A stretch of 63,636 nucleotides of DNA, the filler included, from Candidatus Tectimicrobiota bacterium (GTDB lineage: Bacteria; JACPSX01), in assembly GCA_016193065.1 (NCBI GenBank). It is 6 parts of 6 records of this genome, joined end to end, with 100 filler letters (N's around TTAATTAATTAA, not from the genome) between each part and the next. Parts side by side here need not be neighbours in the genome. Positions count along the whole stretch, not along the records: positions 19,081 to 39,691 come from JACPSX010000039.1; 5 more parts are not named here. One strand, written 5' to 3'. The position numbers were made by a program, and so were the translations under genes. Shown one piece after another: positions 1 to 30,709 of this stretch. How positions within the stretch are numbered: the stretch's first letter is position 1; each line of letters begins with the position of its first letter. The notes beneath the pieces are model-generated. The model worked only from the letters and a program-made list of their open reading frames with translations. It was not told where the DNA came from and searched no databases.

Positions 1-79
1 TGAAAAATCGGTGCCAACAAGACGGGCTTCTTGAACAATGGATTGAAACGACCTTGCAGGTCGTCTCAATCCTTATAGG

Positions 80-967
80 TTAGCCCCGTTCGCGGTTGAG
101 CAACGTTGATAGCGCCTTGGTCAGTTCGGCCTCGTCCTTCAATGCTTGGGCGAGGCGCTCCGAGAGTTCGGAAAGTACGATACGGACGCTACTGGCGAGT
201 TCGAGACACTCCTCATCGGATCTGTCGTGAACCCCTTCACTCAAGGCACTATGCAACAGCGCAAGGGGGTTGTGCCCATTGATGAGGAGGCTCTGCGGGA
301 TAGCGGTCTTGACCATCGCGAGGGCCTTCGAAAACTGAGTCTCCGATACTGCCGCGTTGAGTTCCGAAATGGCGGTAGCGTCAGCGCCAAGTCTTTCAGC
401 GACTTTGATCACTTCGCCGATGATCCGATTCTTCTGGTTCTCGACAACACGTCGGTAGTAAATGAACGCGCCGACCCCAAGGCCCTGGTTCTCACAGCGT
501 CGACCCTTCAGGAACTCATCCCGGTCAGGTCCGATGAGCTTGATCAGTCTGGCGGGAGTAGGCGGCCCGAAGGTCGGTAGTTCACCGAACTTGTACCCCG
601 ATCCAGCCGCCTGCTGTCGCGCGTTCACCTTCGCAGCCAGCGAGAAGGTCTTCTGATTCTGTTGACAGTTCGAACAGCGGTAGGTCAGGTAAAAGAAGCT
701 GTAGTCGGTCAGAAGTCTAGGAGCATCGTCCCCCACGAAGCGAAAGAAGCGCGGGCCATTGCAGGACTCGTTCGTGCAGTGAAGCTGAAGCTCAGGCGTT
801 CGGATCTGGTCCACCTTCGTCCCGTAAAGACTGCTGTACCCCGCTTCGGCGAGATCCGGAACGCCGATGATCTGATTCGGCGGCGTGGACTCCAGAAACT
901 CGGCAAGGGGAAGGTGTATCGGCTCTCGCTTTACTGTGTTCGCGTCGTCGGCAGTAGGTGGCACCAT
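80..967 (-). CDS. Hypothetical cassette-like protein with Cys pairs (possible Zn finger) and a DUF4145/HEPN-like C-terminal half
   Basis: 295 aa ORF. CTNESC and CSNC motifs; 'GRRCENQGLGVGAFIYYRRVVE' resembles DUF4145 helices (inference). Stop TAA lies inside the R''-like GGGGCTAAC. Confidence 0.65.
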   Translation of the reverse strand: MVPPTADDANTVKREPIHLPLAEFLESTPPNQIIGVPDLAEAGYSSLYGTKVDQIRTPELQLHCTNESCNGPRFFRFVGDDAPRLLTDYSFFYLTYRCSNCQQNQKTFSLAAKVNARQQAAGSGYKFGELPTFGPPTPARLIKLIGPDRDEFLKGRRCENQGLGVGAFIYYRRVVENQKNRIIGEVIKVAERLGADATAISELNAAVSETQFSKALAMVKTAIPQSLLINGHNPLALLHSALSEGVHDRSDEECLELASSVRIVLSELSERLAQALKDEAELTKALSTLLNRERG

Positions 968-986
968 AAGGCCCTCGTTCTAGGGG

Positions 987-1067
987 CTATTGAGTATACC
1001 GATCAGCATAGCACGGTTGCCGAAACGTCCCGCAACAGCCACGATTCTCTTGCCTTTCCAAGGAGTT
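987..1067 (-). promoter_or_regulatory. 81-bp left-border/promoter module, copy 1
   Basis: 71/81 identical to 4699-4779. Minus strand has extended -10 TGCTATGCT, a short inverted repeat, then ACTCAA|TAG at the cargo junction. Confidence 0.75.
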
Positions 1068-1262
1068 ATCAAGAGATCTTCCACTTCCCCAACGGACGTG
1101 AAACACTGCCGTCATGGACGGCATAATCCACTTATGGCTGCCGCAGGTTCGCCAACCCCGTCAATCCGTCTGCCGGACTACGAACCCCTCTCCCTCCTCG
1201 ATTCAAGACATGAGTGTAAATCGTCGTGGTCACGTCCCGATGACCCGACGAAAAGGGCGAGG

Positions 1263-1540
1263 AGGGGACGTTGTTTCCGGGTGGACTTAACGATATCGCT
1301 CAAGACCCGGCAGATCATCGGATCGAGCCGCCCGGACAACCGCGGAGGTTGTCACCCCCAGAAATCAAGGAACTTGTGCTCCAGGATTCTCCATCTTGCC
1401 GATGGCGAGTTGGCAAAACAGCCTCCTTCTCCGAAAAAGAGGCTGGGTCCCGGGGGCATCCAATCTCGACTGTCTGGTCATGCCCTCTCATTCCCCCAAG
1501 GTGGTGAACCTGTCAAGTTCATGCAGAAACAACGTCCCCT
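1263..1540 (-). mobile_element. Mini-element with TIRs derived from a Y1/HUH (RAYT-like) transposase gene, copy 1
   Basis: Ends AGGGGACGTTGTTT...AAACAACGTCCCCT. The minus strand encodes MTRQSRLDAPGT (from 1481) joined to a decayed C-terminal HTH 'LFCQLAIGKMENPGAQVP*FLGVTTSAVVRAA'. Confidence 0.8.
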
Positions 1541-1559
1541 ATCGCGCGCCGACAATTCA

Positions 1560-1680
1560 ATTCCTTCCCCCCGGGTACCCCGGGTGCCCTCTGGGCGTGC
1601 GGGGAAGGGCAGCCTGCCTGCCGCCTGCCTGTGCGTCACACGCAGACAGGCGCTTGCGGCGCAGGCAGGGATGGGGGTGT
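1560..1680. repeat. Nested REP-like palindromic micro-repeats
   Basis: Hairpin ttccttccccc...ggggaaggg contains gggtaccccgggtgccctctgggcgtgc (also at ~14136-14164), followed by cctgcctg...caggcagg units (related unit at ~42393-42421). Confidence 0.65.
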
Positions 1681-1788
1681 TCTTCCAAATCAGAGCGGAA
1701 TCACTTCCGGAAGCGATATCGTCGCGGAAACGAAGATCTTTTCGTCAACGGAGTTTTCTGCCCCTTGACGACAGGGCGATCAGAGGGG

Positions 1789-2082
1789 TTAGAGCCTGCC
1801 CAGCCAATACTCAGGCCGGCGTCGTTGGTGTGCCACAGCCAGAACTTGAACAACCTCGCCGACCTCTCGGTACAAGATAGTGTATGGAAAGCGTTGCAGT
1901 GTGGCTCGCCGAATGTCCGGGCGCCGCTCTACTGGGTAACGATGCGGGGCCTGGCACACGTTCTCCATGGCAGACTCAAACTCAGCCAAATAGGAAGCAC
2001 CAAGACCTGGTTGCCTCGACTCGTAGTAGGCGACGGATTCGAGATGCTCTGCCTCCGCCGCTGTGTGAAACTCGTAGTTCAC
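1789..2082 (-). CDS. Type II toxin, RelE/ParE family
   Basis: 97 aa with 'FHTAAEAE...YYESRQPGLG...RFPYTILYR...VLAVAHQRRRPEYW'. Overlaps the antitoxin by ATGA. Confidence 0.9.
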   Translation of the reverse strand: MNYEFHTAAEAEHLESVAYYESRQPGLGASYLAEFESAMENVCQAPHRYPVERRPDIRRATLQRFPYTILYREVGEVVQVLAVAHQRRRPEYWLGRL

Positions 2083-2303
2083 CGGAGGAGCGCCCGAGCC
2101 TTACGCCTGACTTCTTCGGCCGGGATCGGCTGCACCTCGCCTCGATCAATCTCCCGCGCGCGCCGCTCCGCTTCGATGAGCCATGATTCTCTAATTTGTT
2201 CCTCCGAAAGCGACTCAAGGCTCAAGAGAAGCTTCTGTGCAAGCTTGGCACGGTCTTCCGGCGACAGGTTAAGCGCTTCCTGTTCAATTGCCGTCAAATC
2301 CAT
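2079..2303 (-). CDS. Addiction-module antitoxin
   Basis: 74 aa with 'ALNLSPEDRAKLAQKLLLSL...W..EAERR'; lies directly upstream of the ParE-like toxin. Confidence 0.88.
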   Translation of the reverse strand: MDLTAIEQEALNLSPEDRAKLAQKLLLSLESLSEEQIRESWLIEAERRAREIDRGEVQPIPAEEVRRKARALLR

Positions 2304-2583
2304 AACTCCACCTCACTCCCAATCTCTTCGATCTCTAACGTATAGCTTCTTATCCCTAATGCCGAAGCGGAAGAAAAGCTAAGGTCACGCCCCCGAGGGC
2401 ATTGGGAATAAAGCGTGCTGGACAAAACCGCTGAGCGAAAATCTACCGCTTCCCATGGGGATTGTAAAGCGCAAAGGTGACGGAGGTGGGAGCAAAGAGA
2501 AGGGTACGGATGCGGGTTTTGAGAGGGATTGGGTCCGAGCCGATCCCTTCCAGGATTGTGCGGTACGACCCCAGACGGGACGA

Positions 2584-2850
2584 GGGGGACGTTGTTGCCG
2601 GGTGGACTTAACGATATCGCTCAAGACCCGGAAGATCGTCGGATCAAGCCGCCCAGACAACCGCGGAGGTCGTCCCCCCCGGAAACCTAGCAACCTGGGC
2701 GCCAGGATACCCCATCCTGCCTATGGCGAGACCTCCTTCTCCGAAAAAGAGGCAGGGTCCCGGGGGCATCCAATCTCGACTGTCTGGGCATGCCCTCTCA
2801 TCTTCCCCAAGAAGTGAACCTGTCAAGTTCATTCAGAAACAACGTCCCCT
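2584..2850 (-). mobile_element. Mini-element with TIRs derived from a Y1/HUH transposase gene, copy 2
   Basis: Same orientation and same internal deletion as 1263-1540. Encodes MPRQSRLDAPGTL (from 2791) and 'LAIGRMGYPGAQVARF.G.TTSAV'. Confidence 0.8.
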
Positions 2851-2934
2851 CGCGCTGCAAGCATCAAAAAGCAATTATGCAGGCCTGATCCTTCATTCCT
2901 TATAGGTTATCTGCTATCGCGGACTTTCATCGCT

Positions 2935-3681
2935 CTATAGAAACTTAAGGTAATCTATGTATCTAACTTTATAGCCATAGGCTTCAATGCCGTCTTCCAA
3001 TATATGCAAGAATGCGGCAAAATCTTCCGCTTCTCCGACCGAAAAGGCGGGATGCCTATAACGTCGCCTATCTTCATTAAGAGGCTTCTGCAAACATCTG
3101 CTTCTGAAAAGAGCACCTGATCTATTTCTCCCCAGTACCAGGCCAACGTCTTGATCAAAAAATTCCAGCATCGCATTCTGTAACAGTTTCTCTCCTTCTC
3201 CCGTGGTGATACTGACCCCTGAATCAAGAAGCAGAACAACATCCACGACAAAAGGAACAACTCTGTTGAGAGCCGAAGCCAAAAAGTTTCCTTTGGAGAC
3301 ATACCTGACGCTGTGGGGAGATGATTCGAGGAATAAAATACCATTGTCTCTGCAATACTGCATTATTTTCTCCTTGTGGGGGTGTGCGGAATAACATACA
3401 CACCAAGTGCTGATTCTTTTGGCAGTAAGATCGCCAATTAACTGTGAATCTCGTGAGTGATGTAAGCCGTGGTGCTCTGCGATGTTCTTGGCTATTATGG
3501 TACGTACCAGCGCACAACTTGCAAGAGTGAGACAAGCAGAATCGTGGCTTTCCGACTGAACTAAAACTACGGAGCTTAAGAAAGGGAGCATCAATTGTGA
3601 GATGCGCTCCTTCGTGTACGGCGGGTTGTCGTCATAGATGATCTCCTTTTGTTCCCTTCTTAGGAAGTCGAACAACCCCAT
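2935..3681 (-). CDS. Hypothetical protein in a low-GC cassette
   Basis: ATG 3681 (MGLFDFLRR) with GGAG RBS. AT-richer than the host genes. Bounded on the minus strand by GTTATCTGC (3722-3714) and its exact complement GCAGATAAC (2914-2906). Confidence 0.7.
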   Translation of the reverse strand: MGLFDFLRREQKEIIYDDNPPYTKERISQLMLPFLSSVVLVQSESHDSACLTLASCALVRTIIAKNIAEHHGLHHSRDSQLIGDLTAKRISTWCVCYSAHPHKEKIMQYCRDNGILFLESSPHSVRYVSKGNFLASALNRVVPFVVDVVLLLDSGVSITTGEGEKLLQNAMLEFFDQDVGLVLGRNRSGALFRSRCLQKPLNEDRRRYRHPAFSVGEAEDFAAFLHILEDGIEAYGYKVRYIDYLKFL

Positions 3682-3828
3682 GATCTGAATCTCCATGCGG
3701 AAGAGCTGCAATGGCAGATAACGGCGCGGCGCGCCAGAGCAGCCAGTTGTTCGTAGGTTCCTATCCTCAGAACTCTATGCGGTCGCCCGGACGCTTATCT
3801 GTTGCGAGCCCCGTTCTATTCACCGCGA

Positions 3829-4680
3829 CTACCTGACGACAGGAACCAAGTCTATCTTGTTGCCTGGTATTTCGCCGTCAGGCCAACTAATGACGACCAG
3901 TTCGTAGTGGTGGTAGTCTCGGGGTAACGCCCCTTTGTTGACTGTTTCGCTCACCAGGAGTCCGGTAGCTACATCGCGAACAAACGATGAAATGAAGACT
4001 ACCTTACCGTCCTCATAGCAGTACTCTTCGCCCGAAAAACCCCAAGGACGTTCACTCCACGTCTGAGAAATGACCAGACGGCTGAAATCCTTTGCCAACT
4101 GTGATGACACTGTGCCTTTGGGTTTTCCGCCGCTCAGGGCCACCAGTTTAATGTTCTTCGTTTCCGCAACCCTTTTGCCTGTTGTCAGGTCGTAAGTCTC
4201 GACGCGGGGAATCCCCAAACGAAGATCGGCGTCTTCATTCTGGAAGATGTACCGTGTTTCCCACCGTTGGTCCAAGGTGGCCTTCCGAATCTGAGCCCCT
4301 TGCCCCGTGAAGCGGAAGCGGGCCACGATGGAGCACCGCCGGCTTCCTTCGCATGGGAGGTCAAACGTAACCCTTAATCTTCGCTCCCGATCTTCGTCAA
4401 ACAATTCCGCCCCGTGAGCTACGGCGAAAGGTTCCCCGTTCTCGACAGTCCTGAATTTGGCCTCCGAGGCGATGTCATGCCCAACGTCTCCACCATACGA
4501 ATATGTTACCGAGATGGTGGGTGCAGAAGCGATAGAACTTCCCGGTGTCCTGGCAACTGCATGACCGCTTGTCTTCTTGTGATCACCAGAAGCCGTCTTT
4601 GTATCCTCGGTGCAACCAGCAACGACAAGAACTGCGAATAGGAGGGCGCATGCCAGCCTTCTCAGCAGGGCTTTCATCAT
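3829..4680 (-). CDS. Hypothetical lipoprotein
   Basis: 283 aa with signal peptide and lipobox LVVAG|C; AAGGAGG RBS. Starts just after the ACTCAA|TAG junction. Confidence 0.7.
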   Translation of the reverse strand: MMKALLRRLACALLFAVLVVAGCTEDTKTASGDHKKTSGHAVARTPGSSIASAPTISVTYSYGGDVGHDIASEAKFRTVENGEPFAVAHGAELFDEDRERRLRVTFDLPCEGSRRCSIVARFRFTGQGAQIRKATLDQRWETRYIFQNEDADLRLGIPRVETYDLTTGKRVAETKNIKLVALSGGKPKGTVSSQLAKDFSRLVISQTWSERPWGFSGEEYCYEDGKVVFISSFVRDVATGLLVSETVNKGALPRDYHHYELVVISWPDGEIPGNKIDLVPVVR

Positions 4681-4698
4681 TATCCTCCTTCCTGCGAA

Positions 4699-4779
4699 CT
4701 ATTGAGTATGCTGGTCAGCATAGCACGGTTGCCAAAACTTCCCACAACAGCCCCGCTTCTCTTGCCCTTCCAGGGAGTT
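4699..4779 (-). promoter_or_regulatory. 81-bp left-border/promoter module, copy 2
   Basis: Repeat of 987-1067. Perfect inverted repeat TATGCTG-AC-CAGCATA immediately before CTCAA|TAG. Confidence 0.75.
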
Positions 4780-4985
4780 GAGAAAACACATCCCGCCTGA
4801 GCGCACTTCATGAGAAACAATCTCTGCGATCCATCCCCGACTTTCTGGTGGAGCAAGAGTTTAACCCGAAGAGGAGCTGGTAGTTGTCGGTGGGCCAATT
4901 TTAACCCCTTCCGGTCTGGGGGCACAAGGGGATTTTTCAGCGTCCGGAACGATTCCAAAGCCCTCGGGGGGGGCGGGAGGTCTTC

Positions 4986-5079
4986 CGTTCATCCTTCGAC
5001 ACACTCAGGACGAACGGAGGAAGTCTTGAAATTGCTGAGGATTTACCGCTTGTGGTTCGACAGGCTCACCACGAACGGA
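4986..5079. repeat. REP-like palindromes (CCGTTC...TTCGACAGGCTCACCACGAACGG family)
   Basis: Two units; the same motif occurs inside the MITEs at 39849 and 42231. Confidence 0.7.
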
Positions 5080-5143
5080 AAAGGTCCGATGGAGGAAAGG
5101 CCCCCTGAATGTAGGGAGGACTTTCAAGTTGCTCCTCATCAGG

Positions 5144-5488
5144 TCAGGGAACAAACATTTCCTGCAGAACCGCCAGTACTGAAGCCACCGCGCTGGGTGC
5201 TAAGCGTCCCAATGGTCTCACCAATCGCTCGGTGTCAACCGTGCGTAACTGGTCGACTGCAACGAATCCCGCCCGCCCCTGAAAGCGGCATCGAACGCGC
5301 CATGGATAGGCACGTCCTCCCGTTGTCATAGGGGCGACAATTACTGTGCGAAGATGATGATTCAATTCGTCAGGAGAAACCACGAGGCAGGGACGCGTCT
5401 TGCGAATTTCGCTGCCGCGCGTGGGATCGAGCTGGACCAGGTAAACCTCGCCGCGAAACGGGGTGTCCCGCTCTATCGCCACTCCCAT
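5144..5488 (-). CDS. mazF: MazF/PemK family endoribonuclease toxin
   Basis: 'RGEVYLVQLDPTRGSEIRKTRPCLVVSPDELN...DQLRTVD' PemK signature. Confidence 0.93.
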   Translation of the reverse strand: MGVAIERDTPFRGEVYLVQLDPTRGSEIRKTRPCLVVSPDELNHHLRTVIVAPMTTGGRAYPWRVRCRFQGRAGFVAVDQLRTVDTERLVRPLGRLAPSAVASVLAVLQEMFVP

Positions 5489-5724
5489 TCCTCTTCGTCA
5501 AACCGCGTCGTTGTCGGCGGGTCAAGAAGCCGGTCGTCGCCCTGCTTCCGCATCCGCCGGGCTGCAGCCGCCCAACCTGCCCGAGGTCGGGCCGCTCTGC
5601 GTATCACAATGCGCCCAGGCTCGGCTTGCAGTTCGACTTCGTCCGGGAGCTGAGATTCCTCCAACAGCACCTTGGGGAGGCGTATACCGCGTGAATTACC
5701 GATCCGCACAATGCGAGTCTTCAT
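5473..5724 (-). CDS. mazE: AbrB/MazE family antitoxin
   Basis: 'MKTRIVRIGNSRGIRLPK' AbrB fold; overlaps the toxin start. Confidence 0.93.
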   Translation of the reverse strand: MKTRIVRIGNSRGIRLPKVLLEESQLPDEVELQAEPGRIVIRRAARPRAGWAAAARRMRKQGDDRLLDPPTTTRFDEEEWEWR

Positions 5725-5749
5725 CAGACACCTCAGTCAACGTGCTTAT

Positions 5750-5779
5750 ATTGTAATCACGCAGCAAACCGGTTGGCAA
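5750..5779 (-). promoter_or_regulatory. Putative sigma70 promoter of mazEF
   Basis: TTGCCA-18 bp-TACAAT, 26 bp upstream of the ATG. Confidence 0.6.
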
Positions 5780-5833
5780 GAGCATTCATGAGGGGGTATT
5801 TCCCGCTGCGTACGGGGGATTGGTCTTGCCGTC

Positions 5834-6200
5834 TCAATGATTGGCGGGGCGGGCGGACACGAACCACTCCTTGCCCTGACGCCCGGGGGCCGAGTTCGAT
5901 GGCTCGTACGCCGTGAGGAACGAAAAGAAAGGGCCGAAGAGGCGCTCGATTTCGTCGCGCCGGACCGGGAAAGGTGGGCCGCCCGTGCCATCCCGCACCG
6001 GCCAGAAGTTTGCCAGAAAGTAACCTCCGGGTTTCAGGATCTGGAGAACCATCTGGACATACTCGGGGCGCCTCTTGGGATAGCCCAGCCGGGAGAAGAG
6101 TCAGGGGGGGCGGATCTTTTTTCAAGTGAGCGACCAGTGGAGGTGTACCCGCACCCAGCTCCTAGTGGTCCTTATTGCTGTTGTAGAGAGTTTCCCAGAA
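5834..6200 (-). pseudogene. Thiopurine S-methyltransferase-like pseudogene, copy A
   Basis: FWETLYNSNKDH*ELG...; two internal deletions relative to the copy at ~8182-8770, including loss of SAM motif I. Confidence 0.75.
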
Positions 6201-6361
6201 CTACGGGTCACTCACAGAAGATCCGGGAGGGTGAGCAACTGTCTATTCACGGTGCGTTCCTACGTACAGACGCCGAAATGTCTTTTACTTCTTGCCCGAC
6301 CGCCCCTCACCCTTCCCCTCTCCGCACCCAAAGGGTACCCGGGGAGAGGGATGGGGAAAGG

Positions 6362-6402
6362 AAAGGCGGTGCTGTGGTCCACCGAGGTGCGCAGAACCGG
6401 CA
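6362..6402 (-). pseudogene. Duplicated fragment of the pdxA 3' region
   Basis: Encodes LPVLRTSVDHSTAF; near-identical to ~8926-8966 (LPVLRTSVDHGTAF). Confidence 0.7.
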
Positions 6403-6461
6403 GAGAAAAGAGGATGGACAGTCGCGTTGGGGGGAGAGTCAGACATGACTCACGATCCTGC

Positions 6462-6749
6462 CTAAGCTGCCGACAATCGCACGACGCGCAATTTCTTCCG
6501 GCGCCGCTCCGCCCGCCACAGATCATACTGCACCTGCTGGTTGAGCCAGCTTTCCGCCGTCGTATTGAAGGCAATCGACAGGCGAACGGCCATCTCAGGG
6601 CTGATCCCAGCGCGGCCGTTCAGGATGCCGGACAGGGTCTTGCGGCTCACGCCCAAGGCCTTTGCGGCGGCGGTCACACTCAAACCCAACGGCTCCAGAC
6701 ACAACTTTCGGAGCACTTCACCAGGGTGGGGAGGATTGTGCATCAACAT
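6462..6749 (-). CDS. higA: HigA family antitoxin (XRE HTH)
   Basis: '[12 protein letters not shown]...[31 protein letters not shown]'. Confidence 0.92.
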
Positions 6750-6758
6750 GCTCTCACC

Positions 6759-6812
6759 TCAATGATAGTCCTCGTAATCTACTTCCTCGGCATTTTTTCC
6801 CCCAGAGGAAAA
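6759..6812 (-). pseudogene. higB: 3' remnant of higB toxin
   Basis: Reads GKNAEEVDYEDYH* just upstream of higA, the canonical HigB C-terminus. The rest of the gene is missing and an in-frame TAA lies upstream. Confidence 0.75.
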
Positions 6813-6873
6813 TTATCTCTGGGAGCGATGTTGTCGCTGCGACGAGGAGTTTTTCGGCGTGGACGGCTTTGGA

Positions 6874-7194
6874 CTAGGGCATCAACTGCACCAGTCGGTC
6901 ACGGACCGAATCGCGAAACAACACTTCGATCTCAGCGATGTCGTCGTGCAACACATCCACGATTAGAAATCCTTCTTCCGGGTGAAGTGCAATCGTGCGG
7001 TGCCCTTTACCCCAAGGCCCTTTCGGATGCGGCAACGCGTACATTGTGGCGCAAAAATCGTCTCCGCACCGACAGCGGTCAACCACGTTCAAGCTGCTCA
7101 CTCTTTGCGCCAAGGCAATCTCGCCCTGGGCGTCGAGAAGTCGCGCCAGTTCAGCAGCCAACTCTGGAAACTGTTCTGCCAAACTGAACTTCAT
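6874..7194 (-). CDS. Hypothetical protein with a CxCxxxxC motif, probable cassette gene
   Basis: 106 aa with 'VVDRCRCGDDFCAT'; follows a degenerate attC. Confidence 0.7.
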   Translation of the reverse strand: MKFSLAEQFPELAAELARLLDAQGEIALAQRVSSLNVVDRCRCGDDFCATMYALPHPKGPWGKGHRTIALHPEEGFLIVDVLHDDIAEIEVLFRDSVRDRLVQLMP

Positions 7195-7237
7195 GCTTAG
7201 GCACCTTTTCTAAGTCGTGAGTCGTTGTCCTAGGCTC

Positions 7238-7292
7238 CAGGTGAGCCGCGAGAGCTTTGCGAGCGGAGCTCAGCCGCCGCCTTTGTTAGCCG
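7238..7292 (-). repeat. Degenerate attC site
   Basis: GGCTAAC-AAAGGC...TGAGC..CGC / GCGGCTCA-CCTGGAGCC-TAGG. R'' and inner arms are recognisable; the GTT of R' is lost. Confidence 0.55.
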
Positions 7293-7501
7293 GTCTCGGG
7301 ACTCCGTACCTTCTTTATTGCCGCCAGGATCTCATCAAGCGTCAGATCCTTGAACACGTCTTCGCGTTCCTCCGTGTAGTCTCCGTAACCTGTCGTGAAC
7401 TGGTTCAGAAACCGCACGGTGTCTACTATGCCCATCTCCTTAGAGAGCAGGTCAATCGCGTGTCGCGTAATCTCACTCAAGGGTTTTGCCTGGACATTCA
7501 C
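7286..7501 (-). CDS. Putative antitoxin partner of the PIN toxin
   Basis: 71 aa with 'RFLNQFTTGYGDYTEER'; 4-bp overlap with the PIN gene; stop lies in R''. Confidence 0.8.
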   Translation of the reverse strand: MNVQAKPLSEITRHAIDLLSKEMGIVDTVRFLNQFTTGYGDYTEEREDVFKDLTLDEILAAIKKVRSPETG

Positions 7502-7938
7502 TGCGTCACCTCCGCAATCAGCTCAAGCGGGGACACCACTTTGGTCTGTCCCGTATCCACCGCTTTGGCTCGTTTCAGAAATTGATCGTCGCATGTACAG
7601 AAGTAATCGGCCTTTGCTGCCACCGCCGAGGCCAGATGGAGCGCATCAACGGGTTTGATCCCTTCCGGTTGTAGTGCTCGTGCGCGTTCTTCCACTTGGT
7701 TGTCGATGGGAATGAACACTGTCGCTTTGCTTAATACTTTGAGGGCATACTCTTTTCGTACTGGATGCGGGTTGCGCTCGAGCTCGAATACAAGCGTATC
7801 GGAGGCCATCAACTCCACTTGCCCGGCTTCACAGAGCGCCAGGACCCCCAAAATAGCTTCCGCTTCTACTGCAATCCGAGGCTTCGTCTTGGTGTCAAGT
7901 GGGCGCTGAATGCTGCACATGTCGAGGTAAATCTTCAT
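7498..7938 (-). CDS. PIN-domain (VapC-like) toxin
   Basis: 'KIYLD...RP.D...EAEA...DALHLASA...DYFCTCDD' PIN acidic residues. Confidence 0.9.
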   Translation of the reverse strand: MKIYLDMCSIQRPLDTKTKPRIAVEAEAILGVLALCEAGQVELMASDTLVFELERNPHPVRKEYALKVLSKATVFIPIDNQVEERARALQPEGIKPVDALHLASAVAAKADYFCTCDDQFLKRAKAVDTGQTKVVSPLELIAEVTQ

Positions 7939-8181
7939 AATAAGAGTCTACCTTTTGACTTCTTGGGTAGCGATGTACCGCGAAGAACGGCTATTGAGTC
8001 TACTGCGTCTATTCCTGCTGTATATCTCGCAGAGTTCTCCCTTGCGAGAAAAAGCCAATTCCATTGCAATATCGATTACTTACCTTGGATTTGTCAAGCA
8101 TCTTCTCATCCCCCCACACTGCCGATCTTGCAGTCTATCCGGGTATCAAGCCGCAGTGTATCCCCGGGCGAACCCCAAGCC

Positions 8182-8770
8182 CCTCACAGCCGATCGGCGG
8201 GGCCGGCGGACACGAACCACTCCTTGCCTTGGCGCCCGGGGGCGAGTTCGATGGCTCGTACGCCGTGAGGAACGAGAAGAAGGGGCCGAAGAGACGCTCG
8301 ATCTCGTCGCGCCGGACCGGGAAAGGTGGGCCGCCCGTGCCATCCCGCACCGGCCAGAAGTTGGCCAGAAAGTGTCCTCCGGGTTTCAGGATCTGGAGAA
8401 CCATCTGGACGTAATCAGGGCGCCTCTTCGGATCGATCGCGCAAAAGCAGGTGTATTCCCAGATCACGTCGAAGAAAGCAGGATAAATCTCCGGCAACTC
8501 GAAAATATCCCGGCATTCGAAGCGGAGGCGCCCGTCCCGATCCCCGCCGATCTTCTTGGCCTCGTTGATCGCGGTCTCGGAGAAGTCAAATCCCCAGACC
8601 TCATAACCCAGCCGGGAGAAGAGCCGGGCGTCGTGGCCGCGCCCGCACCCGAGAACGGCAACCTTGCCTTTCGAGGGTGGATCTTTTCTTAGGTGAGCGA
8701 CCAGTGGGGGTGCGGCGGCACCCAGCTCCCAGTGGTCCGCATCGCTGTGGTAGAGGGTTTCTCAAAATCG
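8182..8770 (-). pseudogene. Thiopurine S-methyltransferase-like pseudogene, copy B
   Basis: F*ETLY (TGG>TGA)...VAVLGCGRGHDA...WEYTCFCAIDP...GGPPF. A 1-bp deletion near 8240 shifts the C-terminus; no start codon seen. Confidence 0.8.
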
Positions 8771-24038: not shown

Positions 24039-24653
24039 TCACTCTTTTAAGCCTGCCAGATGGAAAGTCTGATTCAAGGTGATCAGGGAGGTCTGGCCGT
24101 TGGCAAACTCGATAATGTTGAGAGCCGCCTCGTCTTGACGGATGATTCGGTAGAGATTCAAGTCCATCTGCAGAAGCCTGCACAGGGTCACCCGGTTGAC
24201 CAGATTGTGGCTGACCACAACCACGCTCCCTTGCGGATGTTTCCCCACGATTTCCTCTATGGACCTCCAGGCCCGCTCCTGTAAAGACGCCAGGGATTCT
24301 CCGTCCGGGATCAGCACGCCGGCCGGAGCCTTCTTCCATTGCTCGATAAATGCCGGGTGGCGAGTGACAATTTCCTGATAAGTGAGCCCCTCCAGACGAC
24401 CCTGATCCAGTTCCATGAGTCCGGGGCGTGTCTGCACGGGGATTCCGCGGGACGCCGCAATGCCTTCGGCCATGTAGAGGGCTCGACCCAGAGGAGAGGA
24501 ATAGACGGCTTCGAGCGGCTCACCTTGCAGATGAAGCGCCACCCGCTGGCTTTGCTCTTCTCCGACCTTGGTCAGCTCCACGTCCGTGACGCCCTGCACG
24601 CGGCCTTCCCGGTTCCATCGCGTCTGGCCATGACGCAATAAAATTAAACGCAT
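24039..24653 (-). CDS. Histidine phosphatase family (CobC/PspA-like)
   Basis: LLRHGQT motif and second His in VVVSH. Confidence 0.9.
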   Translation of the reverse strand: MRLILLRHGQTRWNREGRVQGVTDVELTKVGEEQSQRVALHLQGEPLEAVYSSPLGRALYMAEGIAASRGIPVQTRPGLMELDQGRLEGLTYQEIVTRHPAFIEQWKKAPAGVLIPDGESLASLQERAWRSIEEIVGKHPQGSVVVVSHNLVNRVTLCRLLQMDLNLYRIIRQDEAALNIIEFANGQTSLITLNQTFHLAGLKE

Positions 24654-24810
24654 CGGCCCTCCTCCGATTCATTGCGGACGATTATACCCAAGAGTCACGT
24701 AGCGGCGCAACGCTCTTCGCTACCCACAGTTCTTGTCCGCGGAAGCGTGAGGGAGTACGAGAGTCTCATGCAAGGGGCAGTCCCCACAGGTGATTCAAGC
24801 ATCTGCAAGC

Positions 24811-24959
24811 GGAGACCGGGGTGCCCCTTGGGGCTCCAGTAAACTTTTGCGCGGGAGGGCGATTAGGGTCTCTTGCTTTTCGCATGCGAGAAGATTCAAG
24901 TCTTCCACGAGCGACGCCTGCAAAACTTTAAGTCGCCCTGCGGGGCACACCCGGTCTCC
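24811..24959 (-). ncRNA. Unassigned structured motif, copy A
   Basis: Long hairpin with conserved internal loops shared with 25010-25125 and 27192-27311. Confidence 0.55.
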
Positions 24960-25009
24960 CGGTCCATCTCCCCTTGCCACAATCAACCGATCAACCGCCA
25001 CCCTCCTTC

Positions 25010-25125
25010 TCCGAGGGGGCCGCCCCCGTAGGCGATCTAAGGGGTTGCGAGGAAGAGGACCCTCGATTCCGCCAACACAACTCGCGTCGTAAGCCCTTCG
25101 TGAGCCAAGGGGGCACCCCCTCGGA
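25010..25125 (+). ncRNA. Unassigned structured motif, copy C
   Basis: GCCCCC-GTA-GGC-GATCT-AAGGG-G-TTGCG...CGTAA-G-CCCTT-CGTGA-GCC-AA-GGGGGC. Confidence 0.55.
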
Positions 25126-25146
25126 ACTTGTCCTTGGGCCGATACC

Positions 25147-25908
25147 TCACGCGAAGCGGGGCAAATCAAAGAACGGCCGCAAGGAGATGGCCCTTCCCAT
25201 GCGGGTTTGAATGTAGCGCTCCAGGACCTCAAGGCAACTCTGCACGGCGGCAGACGGCCCGGGCAACCCCACAGGCGATCCTGGTTCCGCCCGCAGACCG
25301 CAACGCAGGGCGGCCAGCACTGGGGGAGAGATTTCCAACCGATCCGGTGCCAGGGGTGCGCATCCTGAACAGAGGATCCCCCCCAGCAACGGGCTAAAGG
25401 AGGGGGCATCCCCCGGAAGAGTCTTACTGCAATGCACACACTGCCCGAGCTGGGGTTCGTAACCGGTGAGGGCCAGCAGGTTGAGCACAAAGGGCACCAG
25501 CAGAGCGATTCCGTCAACCTCCCCTTCCAGAGCCCGCAGACTGCGTGCCAGCAGCCCATACAGGAGGGGTGTGGCTTCCCCTTCCCGGGTGAAGCGATCC
25601 ATAAGCTCAGACATTTTCAAGGCCGGGCCGAGCCGAGAGAGGTCCTCTCGCAGCGCCTGGAAGGAATGAATGAGATCGACGTGGTTTACCCGAGCCAGGG
25701 TCTTCCCCTCTCTAAGGAAGTACACCAGATCCACCTCCGAGAGAGGTTCCAGACGGCCCGCAAACGGGCTTGCTAATTTGCGGGCCCGGCGGGATACACC
25801 GCTCACCTTCCCGTAACGGGCACTCAAAAAGACCGTGATCCGGTCTGTCTCCCCCAGGTTGTAGTTGCGCAGGACAATAGCCGAGGTGCGATGCAGGGAC
25901 AAGCCCAC
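25147..25908 (-). CDS. recO: DNA repair protein RecO
   Basis: 'AIVLR..NLGETDRI.VFLS..YGKV', Zn motifs CVHC and CSGC. Confidence 0.93.
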   Translation of the reverse strand: MGLSLHRTSAIVLRNYNLGETDRITVFLSARYGKVSGVSRRARKLASPFAGRLEPLSEVDLVYFLREGKTLARVNHVDLIHSFQALREDLSRLGPALKMSELMDRFTREGEATPLLYGLLARSLRALEGEVDGIALLVPFVLNLLALTGYEPQLGQCVHCSKTLPGDAPSFSPLLGGILCSGCAPLAPDRLEISPPVLAALRCGLRAEPGSPVGLPGPSAAVQSCLEVLERYIQTRMGRAISLRPFFDLPRFA

Positions 25909-25982
25909 CCCCGAACAAAAAAACTCTTGCCCGCCTCCGGGTCAAGAGCTTCTATACCATCTTGCCAGTGGGCACCCGGGCC

Positions 25983-26090
25983 CTGGTGCCGTTCCAACTA
26001 TTTTGGGCTACGTTCCCATCTCCTCCAATCCATACCTCTTCTGCCACGTACATCGCTCAAATTGGGCGCAGCAAGTTGGAACGGTACTAG
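25983..26090. mobile_element. ~108-bp MITE (GTGCCGTTCCAACT...AGTTGGAACGGTAC), copy 1
   Basis: TIRs with CTGG/CTAG borders; homologous to 35413-35519. Confidence 0.8.
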
Positions 26091-27079
26091 CGGTTATCTT
26101 TTAAGGACCACCCCCCCCTCTGCCTCGCCTTGCGCTCCGCCTCTCGAGCCTTTTCTTCATCGTAATCTCGGGGAATGATGAGCGTCTGTCCCGGGCGCAG
26201 CAGATCAGGATCTTTCAGAGCATTTTCATTGGCTGTAAAAATCAAAGGCCACAGCCAGGGGTTGTTATACACCTCGGGCCTGGCAGCAATATTCCAGAGA
26301 CTGTCTCCAGGTTTGACCGTGTAAGTTTGCGGAGGAGGCGCCGCGGGTTCCTTCTCTACGGGCTTCGCTTGAGGCGCCGACGCCTGAACTTCTTCCGCAA
26401 CGGGACCCGCTTCAGGAGCGGGGGCCGGCACTTCCTTCTTGGCTTCCTCCGCTAACTTACGCTGCCTCTCTCTTTCCTGCAGGACAGCCTGAACCCTGGA
26501 AAGAGCCCCCTCGACTTGTCCGAGAGACTGGCGCACTCGGGAAACTTCGATGAGAGAACTTTGCGCATCTCCTCGGTCGTTTGCATTTTGAGCCCTGACC
26601 AGCGCCGACTGCGCTTCTGCCACCAAGCCTGTGGCGATCCTCAAATCTTCCTCCAGCGCACCCTGGTCGCGCCAGGTGGCCACAGCCTGGCGCGCGCGCT
26701 CCATCTGCTGTCGAACTTCCGCAATCGCCCGGGTTGCCGTCTCCTTCGCTCGAGCCTTAATCACCAGCGTTTCCGCTTCAGCCGCTTCCGCATTTTCCCG
26801 CGCCTCGTTGGCCAAAGCCCTACCCATTTCCTGGTGCCCATCCGTCAACTCTCGCTCCGATTGGCGGATTGCCTCCTGAGCACGCCGGTAACGGTCCGGG
26901 GAATAAACTTCCGCTCCTATACTGCGGGCCGCTTCCAGAGCCGCTTTGGCATCGATCAGTTCTTGCTGAGTATCCAGGGTGACACACCCGGCCAGCCAAA
27001 GCATCATTCCGGTGATCAAAACCCGCCCCGGTAACCCCGGCACTCGGATCTCCTCCGTCCCCCCCATCCTGGATTCCAC
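26087..27079 (-). CDS. Lipoprotein with DUF4398-like coiled region and C-terminal LysM domain
   Basis: LAGC lipobox; 'YTVKPGDSLWNIA...WPLIF.AN...PDLLRPGQTL.IP'. Confidence 0.85.
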   Translation of the reverse strand: MESRMGGTEEIRVPGLPGRVLITGMMLWLAGCVTLDTQQELIDAKAALEAARSIGAEVYSPDRYRRAQEAIRQSERELTDGHQEMGRALANEARENAEAAEAETLVIKARAKETATRAIAEVRQQMERARQAVATWRDQGALEEDLRIATGLVAEAQSALVRAQNANDRGDAQSSLIEVSRVRQSLGQVEGALSRVQAVLQERERQRKLAEEAKKEVPAPAPEAGPVAEEVQASAPQAKPVEKEPAAPPPQTYTVKPGDSLWNIAARPEVYNNPWLWPLIFTANENALKDPDLLRPGQTLIIPRDYDEEKAREAERKARQRGGWSLKDNR

Positions 27080-27103
27080 AAAAAAGTCCGCAAAGTTTTA
27101 AAA

Positions 27104-27132
27104 ACACTAGCATTCGCCCAATGGCCTGTCAA
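27104..27132 (-). promoter_or_regulatory. Putative sigma70 promoter of the LysM gene
   Basis: TTGACA-17 bp-TAGTGT with TGn extension. Confidence 0.65.
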
Positions 27133-27191
27133 GGACAAACTAGGACTTGCCCACCCCCAGTTTGCCTGCGAAGAATTGTTGCCTCCATCAG

Positions 27192-27311
27192 CTCCTCGGG
27201 GGAGCCCCCTTGGGCTCCCGAACGGCTTGCGGCGAGAATCTTCCCGGCTAAGTCGCGAGGAATCGAGCGCAACCCGTTATATCGCCTGCGGGGGCTACCC
27301 CCTCGGAGGAG
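27192..27311 (-). ncRNA. Unassigned structured motif, copy B
   Basis: GCCCCC-GCA-GGC-GATAT-AACGG-G-TTGCG...CGCAA-G-CCGTT-CGGGA-GCC-CAA-GGGGGC. Confidence 0.55.
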
Positions 27312-27699
27312 AGAGCACCGAGGGGACTGTGCTTCCTGCCCTGAGCGCAACTGCCGGGAGCAGCGCAACACCCGCAAAGCGGGTACCCGCACCGGGAGCG
27401 GCCAGGGATGGGAAACCGCGAAGCCAACACGCGCTTCCAGATAGCTGAAAACTTATCGTGGCGGTAGCGGAGGGATCCCACCCTGGGCGCCCCGTAAGGG
27501 TCCGCTGCGGGAGGCGTGGAGCGAAGGGCAGAAGACAGTCCCTTTGCTATGGATTCGCAAAAACTGGGTGTGGGCACCCCCGAGGGGCTGGGATGACGGT
27601 AGTACATTCAGCGAATCTCAGTGGACGACCCGCCCGCGAGAAAATGAGAAAGCAACACAGGCGGTAGCTCACCAGGCAAACAGAGGCTGGGAGAATTGA

Positions 27700-29493
27700 T
27701 TAAATCACCCGGATGTGCAGCTCACGAAGCTGGCGTTCATCCACATCGGAGGGGGCGTCGGAAAGCAGGCAGACCGCCTTCTGGGTTTTGGGAAAGGCGA
27801 TGACGTCGCGGATCGATTTGGCTCCCACCAGGAGGGCAACTAACCTGTCCATTCCAAAGGCGATGCCTCCATGGGGAGGAGTTCCGAACTCGAGAGCCTC
27901 CAGGAGAAATCCAAATTTCGCCTCAGCCTCCTCCATGGAGAGGCCCAGAGCAGAAAACATGAGCTTTTGCACTTCGCGTTGGTGGATCCGGATGCTCCCG
28001 CCTCCGATCTCCTGGCCGTTGAGCACCAGGTCGTAAGCTTGGGCCCTGATTTTGCCGGGGTCGGTTTGAAACAAGGGAATGTCCTCAGGCACGGGAGATG
28101 TAAACGGGTGGTGCATGGCCACATACCGGCCCAGTTCCTCATCAAGCTCGAGCAGAGGGAAATCGGTGATCCACGCCGTAGCGGTCTTCTCTTCCTGCAT
28201 CAGCCCCAGTCGTTGGGCTCCCTCCAGACGGAGCCGTCCCAGGACAGTAGCAGCGATCCGTCCCTGGTCCGCCACCAGGAGAAGCAGATCGGAGGATTTG
28301 GCCTTCATCCGGGCTTGCAGTGGTTCCGCTTCCCCGGCACTGAGGTGTTTCCCGATGGACGACTGCACCCCGCTCTCCCCCACCTTCAGCCAGACGAGGC
28401 CCGCGGCGCCCCAGCCCTTCACCTGCTCCGCCATCAGGTCCAATTCCCGCCGGGACAAATTCCCCAGCCCGGGAAGGGCCAGAGCACGGACCTCTCCTCC
28501 GTTTTCCAGACAGGCCCGGAAAGGGGAGAAGGAAGAAGCCTTAAAAATATCCGATACCTCCACGAGTTCGAGGGGGAACCGTAAGTCCGGCTTGTCACTT
28601 CCGTAGCGGGCCATGGCCTCGTCGTAGCGCAGGCGCGGGAAAGGAAGCGCCAGCTCCACCCCTTTGACCGCCTGAAAGATCGCCGCCACCATGCCCTCCA
28701 TGAGATCGAACAGGATTTCCCGGGTAAGAAAGGACATCTCAATGTCGATCTGGGTGAATTCGGGCTGCCGGTCGGCTCTCAGATCCTCATCGCGGAAGCA
28801 CTTCACGATCTGGTAGTACCGATCGAAGCCCGCCACCATGAGGAGTTGCTTGAAGAGCTGAGGGGATTGGGGCAAGGCGTAGAATTTGCCGGGATTGACC
28901 CGGCTGGGGACCAGATAATCGCGGGCGCCCTCCGGCGTGCTTTTGGTAAGAAATGGGGTCTCCACTTCGATGAAACCATGTTGATCCAGAAATTGGCGGA
29001 CGACCCGGCACACCTGGTGGCGCACCAGCAGGTTTCTCTGCAACACGGGCCTTCTCAGATCCAGGTAGCGATATTTCAAGCGCAAGCTTTCCGAAGCCTC
29101 GGACCCCTCCTCCTCAAGGGAGAACGGCAGTACCCGGGATTCATTCAGGATCTGCATCTGATCGGCCCGTACCTCCACCGCCCCGCTCCCCAAGGCAGGA
29201 TTCTGCGCCCCCTCGGGCCGCTCGACCACCCGGCCCCGGACGGCAATCACGAACTCGTTGCGCAGCGGCCTGGCACTACCATGAAGTTCCGGATCGGAAG
29301 ACGAATCAAACACCACCTGGGCGAGGCCCGTGCGGTCCCGCAGGTCGATAAAAATCAGGCCTCCATGGTCCCGGCGGCGATGAACCCACCCCATCAAAGT
29401 CACCTCGTGTCCTACCTGCTCACGGCGCAAATCGCCGCAATAATGGCTGCGGTCCCAATCCACCTTCCGCTCAACCTCCTCTGTGCCCGGCAT
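27700..29493 (-). CDS. aspS: Aspartate--tRNA ligase, probably non-discriminating
   Basis: RSHYCG, RRDHGG, ALPQSPQ, FRDEDLRADRQPEF, PPHGG. Start 29493 or 29463. Confidence 0.96.
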   Translation of the reverse strand: MPGTEEVERKVDWDRSHYCGDLRREQVGHEVTLMGWVHRRRDHGGLIFIDLRDRTGLAQVVFDSSSDPELHGSARPLRNEFVIAVRGRVVERPEGAQNPALGSGAVEVRADQMQILNESRVLPFSLEEEGSEASESLRLKYRYLDLRRPVLQRNLLVRHQVCRVVRQFLDQHGFIEVETPFLTKSTPEGARDYLVPSRVNPGKFYALPQSPQLFKQLLMVAGFDRYYQIVKCFRDEDLRADRQPEFTQIDIEMSFLTREILFDLMEGMVAAIFQAVKGVELALPFPRLRYDEAMARYGSDKPDLRFPLELVEVSDIFKASSFSPFRACLENGGEVRALALPGLGNLSRRELDLMAEQVKGWGAAGLVWLKVGESGVQSSIGKHLSAGEAEPLQARMKAKSSDLLLLVADQGRIAATVLGRLRLEGAQRLGLMQEEKTATAWITDFPLLELDEELGRYVAMHHPFTSPVPEDIPLFQTDPGKIRAQAYDLVLNGQEIGGGSIRIHQREVQKLMFSALGLSMEEAEAKFGFLLEALEFGTPPHGGIAFGMDRLVALLVGAKSIRDVIAFPKTQKAVCLLSDAPSDVDERQLRELHIRVI

Positions 29494-30709
29494 CCTCCCA
29501 AACCTCTGCACTGCCATGATCGAGAAGCTTAACAGAATCCCAGTGGCCGCACTGGGGGCATTTCCAGAATACGGCCACAGACCGATAGCCACAGTGGCTG
29601 CAGCCGAAGCGCTTCTCCTGGGCGCTCAAAATCTCCAACATGCGGGTCGTCTCTGCACTTGCCTCCTGCCACCGGCGCTCCTCCAAATAGGTCTGATGGA
29701 GGATTCGGTAAGCTTCCACCAGGGTTGGCTGGTGGTTCAACACTTCCTGGAACTCCCGGACGGCCTCCTCGTACATCTCCTTTTTCTGGTAGAGGCGAGC
29801 CAGAGCCATACGGGTTAGATAATCCCCGGGGTGGCGGCGCAGATGATCGAGATATTTTTCCCCCATGTGGTCGTAGCGACCCAATTCGAAATAGGCCTTC
29901 TCCATGCGCTCAAAAGCCAGAAACATGAAACTGGGATCCGCTTCCTTTACCTCCTCCCAGGCCTGGATGGCCTTCTCGTTCTTGCCCTGCCGCTCCAGGG
30001 CATCCCCGAACAGGAGGCGGGCTTCCACGCATTTCTTATCCAGGGCAATGGCGGTTTTGAAACAGCGCAGAGCCTCTTTGACCCGCCCCTGCCCCAGGTG
30101 GACTTTCCCCTCCTCGATCTTCAGGTGGGAGAGAACCTTGCCGTTGCCGCCTCCCCGCATCTTGTAGAGCTTCTTCTGAATCTCGTAGGCGGATTCCCAG
30201 TCGCCGGTTTCCTGGTACAGTCCAAGCATGGATTGGTAGACTTCCCGGTTGGTGGGATCGAGAGACGCGGCTCGCTCCAGGATCGACAGGGCCCGTTCGC
30301 AGTACCCCAGCGTCCTGCAGTCATGCGCCAGCTCCAGGAGAGCTTTCACCTTGACCCCGAGAGGAATCTCCGGGCGCACCGTCAGACTCTCGTGGATTCT
30401 CAGGGCTCTCTCCACCTCCCCTTTGGACCTGTAGAGCTGCCCCAAGCGCACGTAAATGTCCGTGTTCTCCGGGTTCATCCGGGCCACCAGAGAAAACTCC
30501 CGGATGGCCTGGTCGGTTTTGCCGTCCGATACGTAGTCCAGCCCGCGGCGGTAGGCCTCCAGCTCCGCCTCGCGGAGTTGCAGGCTGCGGTTGCCCGACC
30601 AGATCTTGGGGCGCCGGACCATCCAGCCGCCCAGCAGGATTCCAAGCAAGAGGGCGGCCACTCCCACCAGAAACAGGATATTTAGGGTATAGAGGGGGAT
30701 ACTGCTCAC
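29471..30709 (-). CDS. lapB: LPS assembly protein B (TM + TPRs + rubredoxin)
   Basis: N-terminal TM, TPRs, CSHCG...WKCPQC..W. Confidence 0.85.
   Translation of the reverse strand: MSSIPLYTLNILFLVGVAALLLGILLGGWMVRRPKIWSGNRSLQLREAELEAYRRGLDYVSDGKTDQAIREFSLVARMNPENTDIYVRLGQLYRSKGEVERALRIHESLTVRPEIPLGVKVKALLELAHDCRTLGYCERALSILERAASLDPTNREVYQSMLGLYQETGDWESAYEIQKKLYKMRGGGNGKVLSHLKIEEGKVHLGQGRVKEALRCFKTAIALDKKCVEARLLFGDALERQGKNEKAIQAWEEVKEADPSFMFLAFERMEKAYFELGRYDHMGEKYLDHLRRHPGDYLTRMALARLYQKKEMYEEAVREFQEVLNHQPTLVEAYRILHQTYLEERRWQEASAETTRMLEILSAQEKRFGCSHCGYRSVAVFWKCPQCGHWDSVKLLDHGSAEVWEDAGHRGG

Follow-up and report, generated by a model that had tools for sequence, protein, structure and literature searches.

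The stretch of DNA considered here (the window; 63,636 nucleotides, filler included) comes from the Candidatus Tectimicrobiota bacterium assembly GCA_016193065.1 (JACPSX01), and the part of it that derives from JACPSX010000039.1 (positions 19,081 to 39,691) contains three copies of a long, imperfect hairpin repeat, all adjoined by genes on the minus strand. Copies A (150 nt, 24811..24960, minus strand) and B (117 nt, 25009..25125, plus strand) lie between a histidine phosphatase gene (24039-24653, minus strand) and recO (25147-25908, minus strand), and copy C (117 nt, 27192..27308, minus strand) lies between a gene for a LysM/DUF4398 protein (26087-27079, minus strand) and aspS (27700-29592, minus strand). 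A and C are thus sense to their neighbours, and B is antisense to both adjoining genes. Read from recO, B starts 21 nt beyond the stop, and the 3' end of C is 112 nt upstream of the LysM/DUF4398 gene start. A first-pass annotation, made from the sequence alone, had reported the three copies within 1-3 nt of these coordinates and on these strands. It had also described A and C as back to back; the adjacent pair is in fact A and B, whose 5' ends face each other across a 48-nt spacer (24961..25008, no strand assigned), with C ~2.07 kb away. Elsewhere the window has the gene content usual for the chromosome of a diderm bacterium (lapA/lapB, tonB, motA/motB, glnD, phoH), and no tRNA or tmRNA genes were found in the window.

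All three copies are predicted to form the same long, imperfect five-helix hairpin (z = -6.3, -5.4 and -4.0 for A, B and C). Copy A consists of an outer stem (GGAGACCGGG/CCCGGTCTCC), GCCCC, GCA, GGGC, GACT, TAAA-G-TTTTGC, a 69-nt apex and a mirror 3' arm. The layout proposed at first pass, namely GCCCC(C), G(C/T)A, GG(G)C, a loop that begins with GA, a stem ending in TTGC, a variable apex and a mirror 3' arm, is found in each copy. The stems AAGGG/CCCTT, AACGG/CCGTT and TAAA/TTTA are likewise as described, with pairing kept through covariation, and a 1x1 G.G mismatch interrupts the inner stem in 3/3 copies. The apex words GGAAGA and CTCGC also occur in 3/3 copies, and CTCGATTCC in the apices of B and C. 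A pattern for the 5' arm matches exactly three times in the 63.6-kb window, against 0.00 matches expected from 100 shuffles.

The apex splits the family into A-, B- and C-type subfamilies, of which the window holds one each. Two covariance models were built, R1 from seven B/C-type copies and R2 from four A-type copies; copy A scores 163.8 bits with R2, and copies B and C score 97.6 and 137.5 bits with R1. A model made without copy A recovers copy A (E 0.004). R2, which contains A-type copies only, recovers B (E 1.9e-5) and C (E 5e-4) on the strands given above, so the subfamilies are homologous. Because pairwise identity among A, B and C is low (83/159, 82/152 and 87/129 aligned columns), the shared fold does not merely reflect recent duplication.

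Searching related genomes with the covariance models, a check already named at first pass, gave 18 more copies in a close relative, the 2.7-Mb metagenome-assembled genome (MAG) DATEAK01 (hereafter G001), whose AspS and PhoH are 85% and 93% identical to those of the window and are encoded on one syntenic contig. R1 finds eight strong full B/C-type copies there, besides weaker ones, R2 finds seven A-type copies, and three 3' half-copies (C93, C387 and C132, at loci L016, L020 and L022) complete the count of distinct copies. Copy A is 76-78% identical to two of these copies (C83 and C311), copy C shares 85-96% identity with copies elsewhere in G001, at unrelated loci, and the apex type of B recurs in C1, C174 and C46. 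A, spacer and B also recur together as a 247-nt unit at the unrelated nuoA locus of G001 (window 24809-25049 vs L008 1591-1821, 78% over 247 columns). The G001 contig that carries aspS and phoH ends inside the repeat region, and recO and the LysM protein were not found in G001 with queries from the window.

Beyond G001, matches were scarce in the collections searched. A scan of 185,579 species genomes with the 5'-arm pattern returned six loci, five in G001 and one chance match (L005), and a metagenome scan returned ten, mostly the G001 loci again, which were left out of the copy count, plus one further chance match (L024) and one artefact. Neither L005 nor L024 folds or aligns like the element. 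The artefact, metagenome contig L028, bears half an A-type copy and then reverses, its flanks being mutual reverse complements, which marks a fold-back assembly artefact arising from the hairpin; another locus, L032, looks like a chimera of two loci. With R1 at E up to 0.001, G001 was the only match among 60 genomes of putative relatives. A phylum-wide search centred on G001 gave G001 alone, perhaps because the collection has no other member of the lineage or because the search tool does not place it, and the best match to its REP-associated tyrosine transposase (RAYT, where REP stands for repetitive extragenic palindrome; see below) in 199 other 'relatives' was at most 51% identical; the searched genomes are therefore probably distant, and restriction to this lineage is weakly tested.

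The statistics of pairing come from two alignments; two others, A2, in which MAFFT misaligned the 3' arms of A-type copies, and A4, which contained antisense rows, were set aside. In the model-fitted alignment of ten B/C copies, 89.7% of cells are paired versus 84.5% after shuffling, nine of 32 pairs have changed on both sides, none of 500 shuffles reaches the covariation score, and sliding the partners lowers pairing to 35-51%. Among four A-type copies, 94.8% of cells are paired versus 90.0% when shuffled, with 5/29 pairs changed on both sides. At most two of 500 shuffles reach the covariation values in either alignment, counts that are biased towards the model structure and come from copies that share ancestry. 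The changes are visible among the stems AACGG/CCGUU, AAGGG/CCCUU, AAGCG/CGCUU and AAGAG/CUCUU, in the stem UUGCG/CGCAA, which appears elsewhere as UUUCG/CGAAA, and in the outer stem (CUCC/GGAG, GUCC/GGAC, GGAGAC/GUCUCC, GGGGAC/GUCCCC). Little variation is seen in the helices GCCCC(C)/GGGG(G)C and GGC/GCC, in the GA...GA that flanks them or in the G.G mismatch, which 12/14 full copies keep. Short palindromes of the form GGGGG-NN-(G)CCCCC lie inside both arms. A G(C/T)AG tetranucleotide follows the palindrome on its 3' side in 12/14 5' arms (the exceptions are C174 with CCAG and C324 with CUCG) and is absent from the 3' arm.

The pairing counts show that pairing has been kept, and not why. Covariation alone does not separate RNA genes from elements of the REPIN kind (inverted REP pairs that form hairpins); REPIN hairpins covary too, as passages of one study report (PMC3116915). 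The covariation behind the first-pass suggestion of a new non-coding RNA (ncRNA) or protein-binding RNA is real, but tests of strand, orientation and context lend that suggestion no support. Antisense strands fold as well as sense strands, with about equal minimum free energy, and DNA parameters predict the same fold as RNA parameters. A G.U pair had been taken as evidence for the strand. An RNA selected on that strand should show more G.U than A.C cells, and the defined helices of both alignments show the opposite (four G.U versus six A.C), so that argument fails for the family as a whole.

All 21 copies, three in the window and 18 in G001, are intergenic, and the listing of neighbouring genes, likewise named at first pass, gives functionally unrelated ones throughout. 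In G001 they comprise cinA/adenosine kinase, nuoA/outer-membrane efflux protein, lon-N/FAD oxidase, 3-hydroxyacyl-CoA dehydrogenase, lptD, amidohydrolase, adh/ispG, feoA/anmK, uvrB/uvrC, ubiD/luciferase-like, DUF192/ABC, PilZ protein, ilvD, GTPase and enoyl-CoA hydratase/MFS genes. There is no strand bias: 11 copies are sense to all known neighbours, seven are antisense, and three are mixed, lying between genes of opposite direction. Such a mixture of orientations and neighbours rules out a leader or riboswitch-like RNA, in agreement with the first-pass argument against a plain riboswitch, and is as expected of a dispersed repeat. Part of that argument had been that B lies upstream of a predicted promoter; a simple promoter scan of 24500-27800 gives only 26979-27007 (plus strand), which is not beside B.

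Some copies are decayed, chimeric or combined with other repeats. C174 combines the 5' end of an A-type copy with the 3' end of a C-type copy and has an unpaired outer stem, and a small palindrome, GCAGGGGTGCCCCTACA, stands in place of the A-type 5' arm in C150 and C92. The same palindrome precedes copies C35, C19 and C93, and so stands beside five G001 copies in all (L007 921-933, L011 240-252, L016 7-19 and, in L046 and L047, the 5' end of the copy). On the opposite strand it is GTAG followed by GGGCACCCC, which is the canonical REP order. In five G001 copies, one or two additional small hairpins take the place of the CAA loop; four of these copies carry GGGUACCCAUCCUGGGU, and C330 carries a longer insert. 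Nesting is seen at C227, where an A-type copy lies in the apex of a B-type copy that is in turn bracketed by a further repeat, the downstream module.

This module (AATTCTTCGCAGGC plus AAACTGGGGGTGGGCAAG) follows core C in the window at 27146..27177 (minus strand), and in the form AATTC...AAACTGGGGGTGGGCAAG, with up to two substitutions, it stands 30-45 nt 3' of the core in 7/12 B/C-type copies examined; in G001 it is seen at loci L009, L011-L014, L020 and L043. An inverted downstream module fused to the end of a 3' arm (CTGGGTGTGGGCACCCCCGAGG) occupies 27553..27590 (plus strand; regular-expression matches at 27561-27576 and 27570-27585, both plus strand). It matches the 3' end of the C174 copy at 22/22 positions and a stretch just upstream of the C330 copy at 80% over 55 nt; inverted modules lie upstream of the C330 and C227 copies as well. 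In the window the two modules form outer inverted repeats around core C and hairpin D, a longer imperfect hairpin repeat of ~225 nt (27320..27545, no strand assigned; folds with z -4.4 and -4.0) that sits between the inverted module and the core. The 3' half of hairpin D resembles the region upstream of the C46 copy (76-81% identity). G001 offers weak partial matches only (five, of which the one near the C46 copy, with 81% over 88 nt, is the best), and its C330 copy is without hairpin D. A module-like remnant directly follows the aspS stop (27671..27699, plus strand), where it takes part in inverted repeat I5 (arms 27150-27168 and 27673-27691, 84% complementary). In plasmid and phage collections, neither A+B nor the region of C and hairpin D found a match.

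Contig depth in four groundwater DNA runs from one study points to many more copies. The values, given here run by run, are sums over all contigs of at least 85% likeness, possibly including other organisms, and are not copy numbers. The left flanking gene has summed depths of 16/28/11/4.7 and the LysM gene of 9.8/24/9/4.1-4.7, against 354/1728/502/235 for the bin of copy A, 459/871/291/118 for B and 288/1037/301/145 for C, that is, 22-62 times the flank. The bin at 27350-27483, in hairpin D, reaches 1647/3602/1346/487 (~104-168 times the flank) and thus exceeds the motif originally reported. Each run yields 283-423 contig pieces, of which 107-172 continue into unlike sequence, and long contigs of the window's own population end at the repeats. 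The depth data hence show many copies with many different flanks.

A candidate enzyme was found beside one of the half-copies. G001 has two decayed Y1/RAYT-like genes, at C132 (L022 1481-1711) and C80 (L039 1417-1944). The C132 gene, which lies at a contig end and is the stronger of the two matches, is the only match in G001 to Pfam PF01797 (Y1_Tnp; 25.9 bits, cut-off 23), and its only NCBIfam match is NF047646, REP-associated tyrosine transposase (27 bits versus a cut-off of 80), for a fragment of 50 aa. It is 82-94% identical to many metagenome proteins of 237 aa (89 clusters), some named RayT in their source and most on contigs of 1-3 kb, and two of four such relatives tested pass the NF047646 cut-off. 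Compared with them, the C132 gene has kept residues ~30-79 and the last ~29 and has lost the middle. A 3' half-element lies 15 nt beyond its natural stop; the other flank is off the contig. By a rough estimate from ~18 copies and a few thousand intergenic regions, this adjacency, a single case, would arise by chance with a probability of ~1-2%.

Correia/NEMIS-type miniature inverted-repeat transposable elements (MITEs) of Neisseria are intergenic, ~100-150 bp long and found in both orientations and in subfamilies, and they form long hairpins when transcribed. They end in defined terminal inverted repeats and duplicate a TA target; at the flanks of the element described here, in contrast, no target duplication was noticed. 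Imperfect hairpins with unpaired or mismatched bases are found at the ends of IS200/IS605 insertion sequences (IS) and in their gene-less derivatives (palindrome-associated transposable elements, PATEs). Unlike these, the copies have no adjoining tnpA or tnpB and their left and right ends are indistinguishable; TnpB (PF07282) was not found in G001. Recognition of imperfect hairpins on one DNA strand by a Y1 enzyme of the HUH class, of the IS200/IS605 type, is treated in passages of PMC8266576. The same passages state that TnpA-REP of Escherichia coli acts on one folded DNA strand in a strand-specific manner and requires conserved mismatches in the stem, a perfect stem abolishing activity (PMC8266576). 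Such a requirement would give the invariant G.G mismatch and loops of the present element a natural role.

REPINs consist of inverted REP pairs with a variable spacer that form a hairpin in single-stranded DNA or mRNA, and compensatory changes are common in them, according to sections of PMC3116915. The element resembles the REPIN/RAYT system of Pseudomonas fluorescens SBW25, as far as those sections describe it, in its inverted conserved arms, less conserved spacer, predicted hairpin and compensatory changes, as well as in extragenic dispersal, singlets through decay and association with a Y1 RAYT (PMC3116915). It differs from SBW25 REPINs in its greater length and irregularity (117-150 nt, five helices, a G.G mismatch and asymmetric loops that are invariant), in having fewer copies per MAG (18 in 2.7 Mb) and only a decayed RAYT with one flanking half-copy, and in forming mosaics with extra modules (the downstream module and hairpin D). 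Parts of PMC3733652 add that REP dimers 20-100 bp apart can form one large stem-loop and that subfamilies differ by complementary changes. With the GTAG REP superfamily and the bacterial interspersed mosaic elements (BIMEs) of E. coli, as portrayed in portions of two papers, the element shares short G/C-rich palindromes whose loops have 2-3 nt, a G(Y)AG tetranucleotide, head-to-head dimers, complementary changes between subfamilies, stem mismatches and mosaics with other motifs (PMC3733652; PMC8266576). Unlike in GTAG REPs, the canonical order is found only in the separate small module (reverse complement GTAGGGGCACCCC) beside five G001 copies. A literature text search with three motif strings gave no match; the REP consensus tables of PMC3733652 (Figure 1 and additional files) could contain a similar family.

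Taken together, the dispersed, decaying and mosaic state of the family and the depth excess favour a mobile element of the REP/REPIN kind. The first-pass suggestion of a structured non-coding part of a mobile element therefore comes closest among the options it listed, the copies being a dispersed repeat family; its example, an end of an IS110-type element, is not supported, no transposase having been found among the 64 window reading frames scanned. We think it probable that the family is a lineage-specific, REPIN/BIME-like, non-autonomous hairpin DNA repeat whose mismatches serve as recognition features on folded single-stranded DNA. The unit would fold as single-stranded DNA, for example on the lagging-strand template, and a RAYT of the Y1/HUH type may recognise its invariant irregularities, namely the GCA/CAA loop, the tandem G.A beside GGC/GCC and the G.G mismatch, and cut and rejoin the unit. 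Copies could in this way be inserted into intergenic DNA and the loops of existing copies, and stems would be kept through compensatory change because the fold itself is recognised. The linked transposase is decayed in G001, so the population there is probably eroding to half-copies and chimeras. Inserted copies would be transcribed passively within mRNAs, where their hairpins may affect mRNA ends.

Several observations weigh against a REPIN-like repeat of this kind. Mobility is inferred from dispersal and nesting, with the nested C227 copy as indirect evidence; no empty site or excision product was observed, and none of the contigs in the four DNA runs was reported to bridge an empty site. 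The G(C/T)AG tag stands on the 3' side of the palindrome, in the 5' arm only, versus canonical GTAG 5' of the palindrome in the relevant parts of PMC3733652 and PMC8266576. With their 117-150 nt, five helices and highly conserved loops, the units exceed typical REP pairs in complexity. An intact RAYT with repeats on either side was not seen, the linked gene being decayed and running off its contig, and the second decayed Y1-like reading frame (C80) has no repeats nearby. The depth excess may include other organisms. Finally, repeats seem to be present at one position at least, downstream of aspS, in the window and in G001 alike, which fits a conserved function too.

The last point is shared by the alternative that the copies are paralogous genes of a multi-copy structured ncRNA family, trans-acting or protein-binding, in which the loops would serve RNA tertiary structure or protein binding, for example as tandem sheared G.A pairs. 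We judge this unlikely. It would account for internal loops and a G.G mismatch that stay invariant while the stems covary across three subfamilies, for predicted hairpins of -57 to -74 kcal/mol in the better-preserved copies, and for the extra hairpins at the CAA loop, which amount to three-way-junction variants as in many RNA families. Such a family would be new, as the first-pass annotation had supposed: Rfam 15, with its riboswitch, 6S, SRP, tmRNA, RNase P, HEARO and ribozyme models, gave no match at gathering score in the whole window, and only a 17-bit chance match to mir-9033 in 24600-27750 with E up to 10. However, no conserved promoter motif was present upstream of the copies, and no T-run was noticed after the cores, in the flanks inspected, and none of the three terminator-like sites of a simple scan abuts a copy. 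Mixed orientation, G.U cells no more frequent than A.C, equally stable antisense folds, half-copies, chimeras and a nested copy also speak against RNA genes, as do a depth excess that suggests tens of copies and the presence of the element in only G001 among 60 genomes. A variant that combines mobility with an RNA product, in which the core (GCCCCC / GCA-CAA / GGC-GCC / tandem G.A / G.G) is a functional structured module read by a dedicated protein and the copies are expressed as discrete RNAs, a mobile multi-copy class of structured RNA from a scarcely sampled bacterial lineage, has a slim chance of being correct.

It is just as doubtful that the element is a MITE of an IS of the DDE type, with the outer stem or the outer CTTGCCCACCCCCAGTTT modules as terminal inverted repeats and a transposase encoded elsewhere. 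Outer inverted modules do bracket the core in the window (27146-27177 and 27553-27590) and in the G001 copies C330 and C227, and a dispersed, intergenic family in both orientations, with nested and truncated copies, is in keeping with a MITE. Against this, no target-site duplication was seen by eye in the flanks of 20 copies, and conservation is highest within the arms and loops and not at the termini. The window open reading frames (ORFs) scanned include no transposase with matching ends, no IS with such ends was seen in the loci examined, and the sole linked enzyme is the Y1 RAYT remnant.

Less probable still is a host-selected cis element, either a hairpin that protects mRNA ends or a site for a nucleoid or regulatory protein, in place of a selfish repeat. 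The copies all lie in intergenic DNA, several of them between genes of the same direction (uvrB/uvrC, feoA/anmK, adh/ispG), and REPs have such roles in E. coli, as parts of PMC3733652 and PMC3479197 relate. The neighbours are nevertheless functionally unrelated, for seven of the 21 copies every known neighbour lies on the opposite strand, some copies are decayed or nested, and no T-run suited to termination was noticed in the flanks inspected. The remaining candidates were dropped: an IS110-type end or bridge RNA for lack of a transposase domain in 64 window ORFs (10 near the copies and 54 further) or in ORFs beside the G001 copies, and a riboswitch, ribozyme, retron, attC site or bridge RNA for lack of an Rfam match or a nearby partner gene and for mixed orientation.

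On the reading as a REPIN-like repeat, what looked like a new covarying RNA is explained as a selfish or domesticated hairpin DNA repeat. It adds a well-resolved family of repeats, which comprises three subfamilies, shows invariant mismatches and nesting and has a decaying RAYT, from an uncultured and little-sampled groundwater and soil lineage. That lineage could serve the study of how Y1 enzymes read irregular hairpins and of how repeats erode after the enzyme is lost. The repeats also fragment assemblies of the lineage, in that contigs of G001 and Logan contigs end at them.

Two further features of the window were noted in passing. At 1-8700, 11/12 predicted ORFs have no Pfam match at E 1e-8, the exception being a PIN domain; these may be genuine new genes or else spurious frames, the DNA being GC-rich. 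In the interval from recO to the LysM gene, 17-nt inverted arms (CTGGTGCCGTTCCAACT / AGTTGGAACGGTACTAG) lie 74 nt apart at 25983-26090, where contig depth is ~2 times that of the flank and contigs break at 26015-26087.

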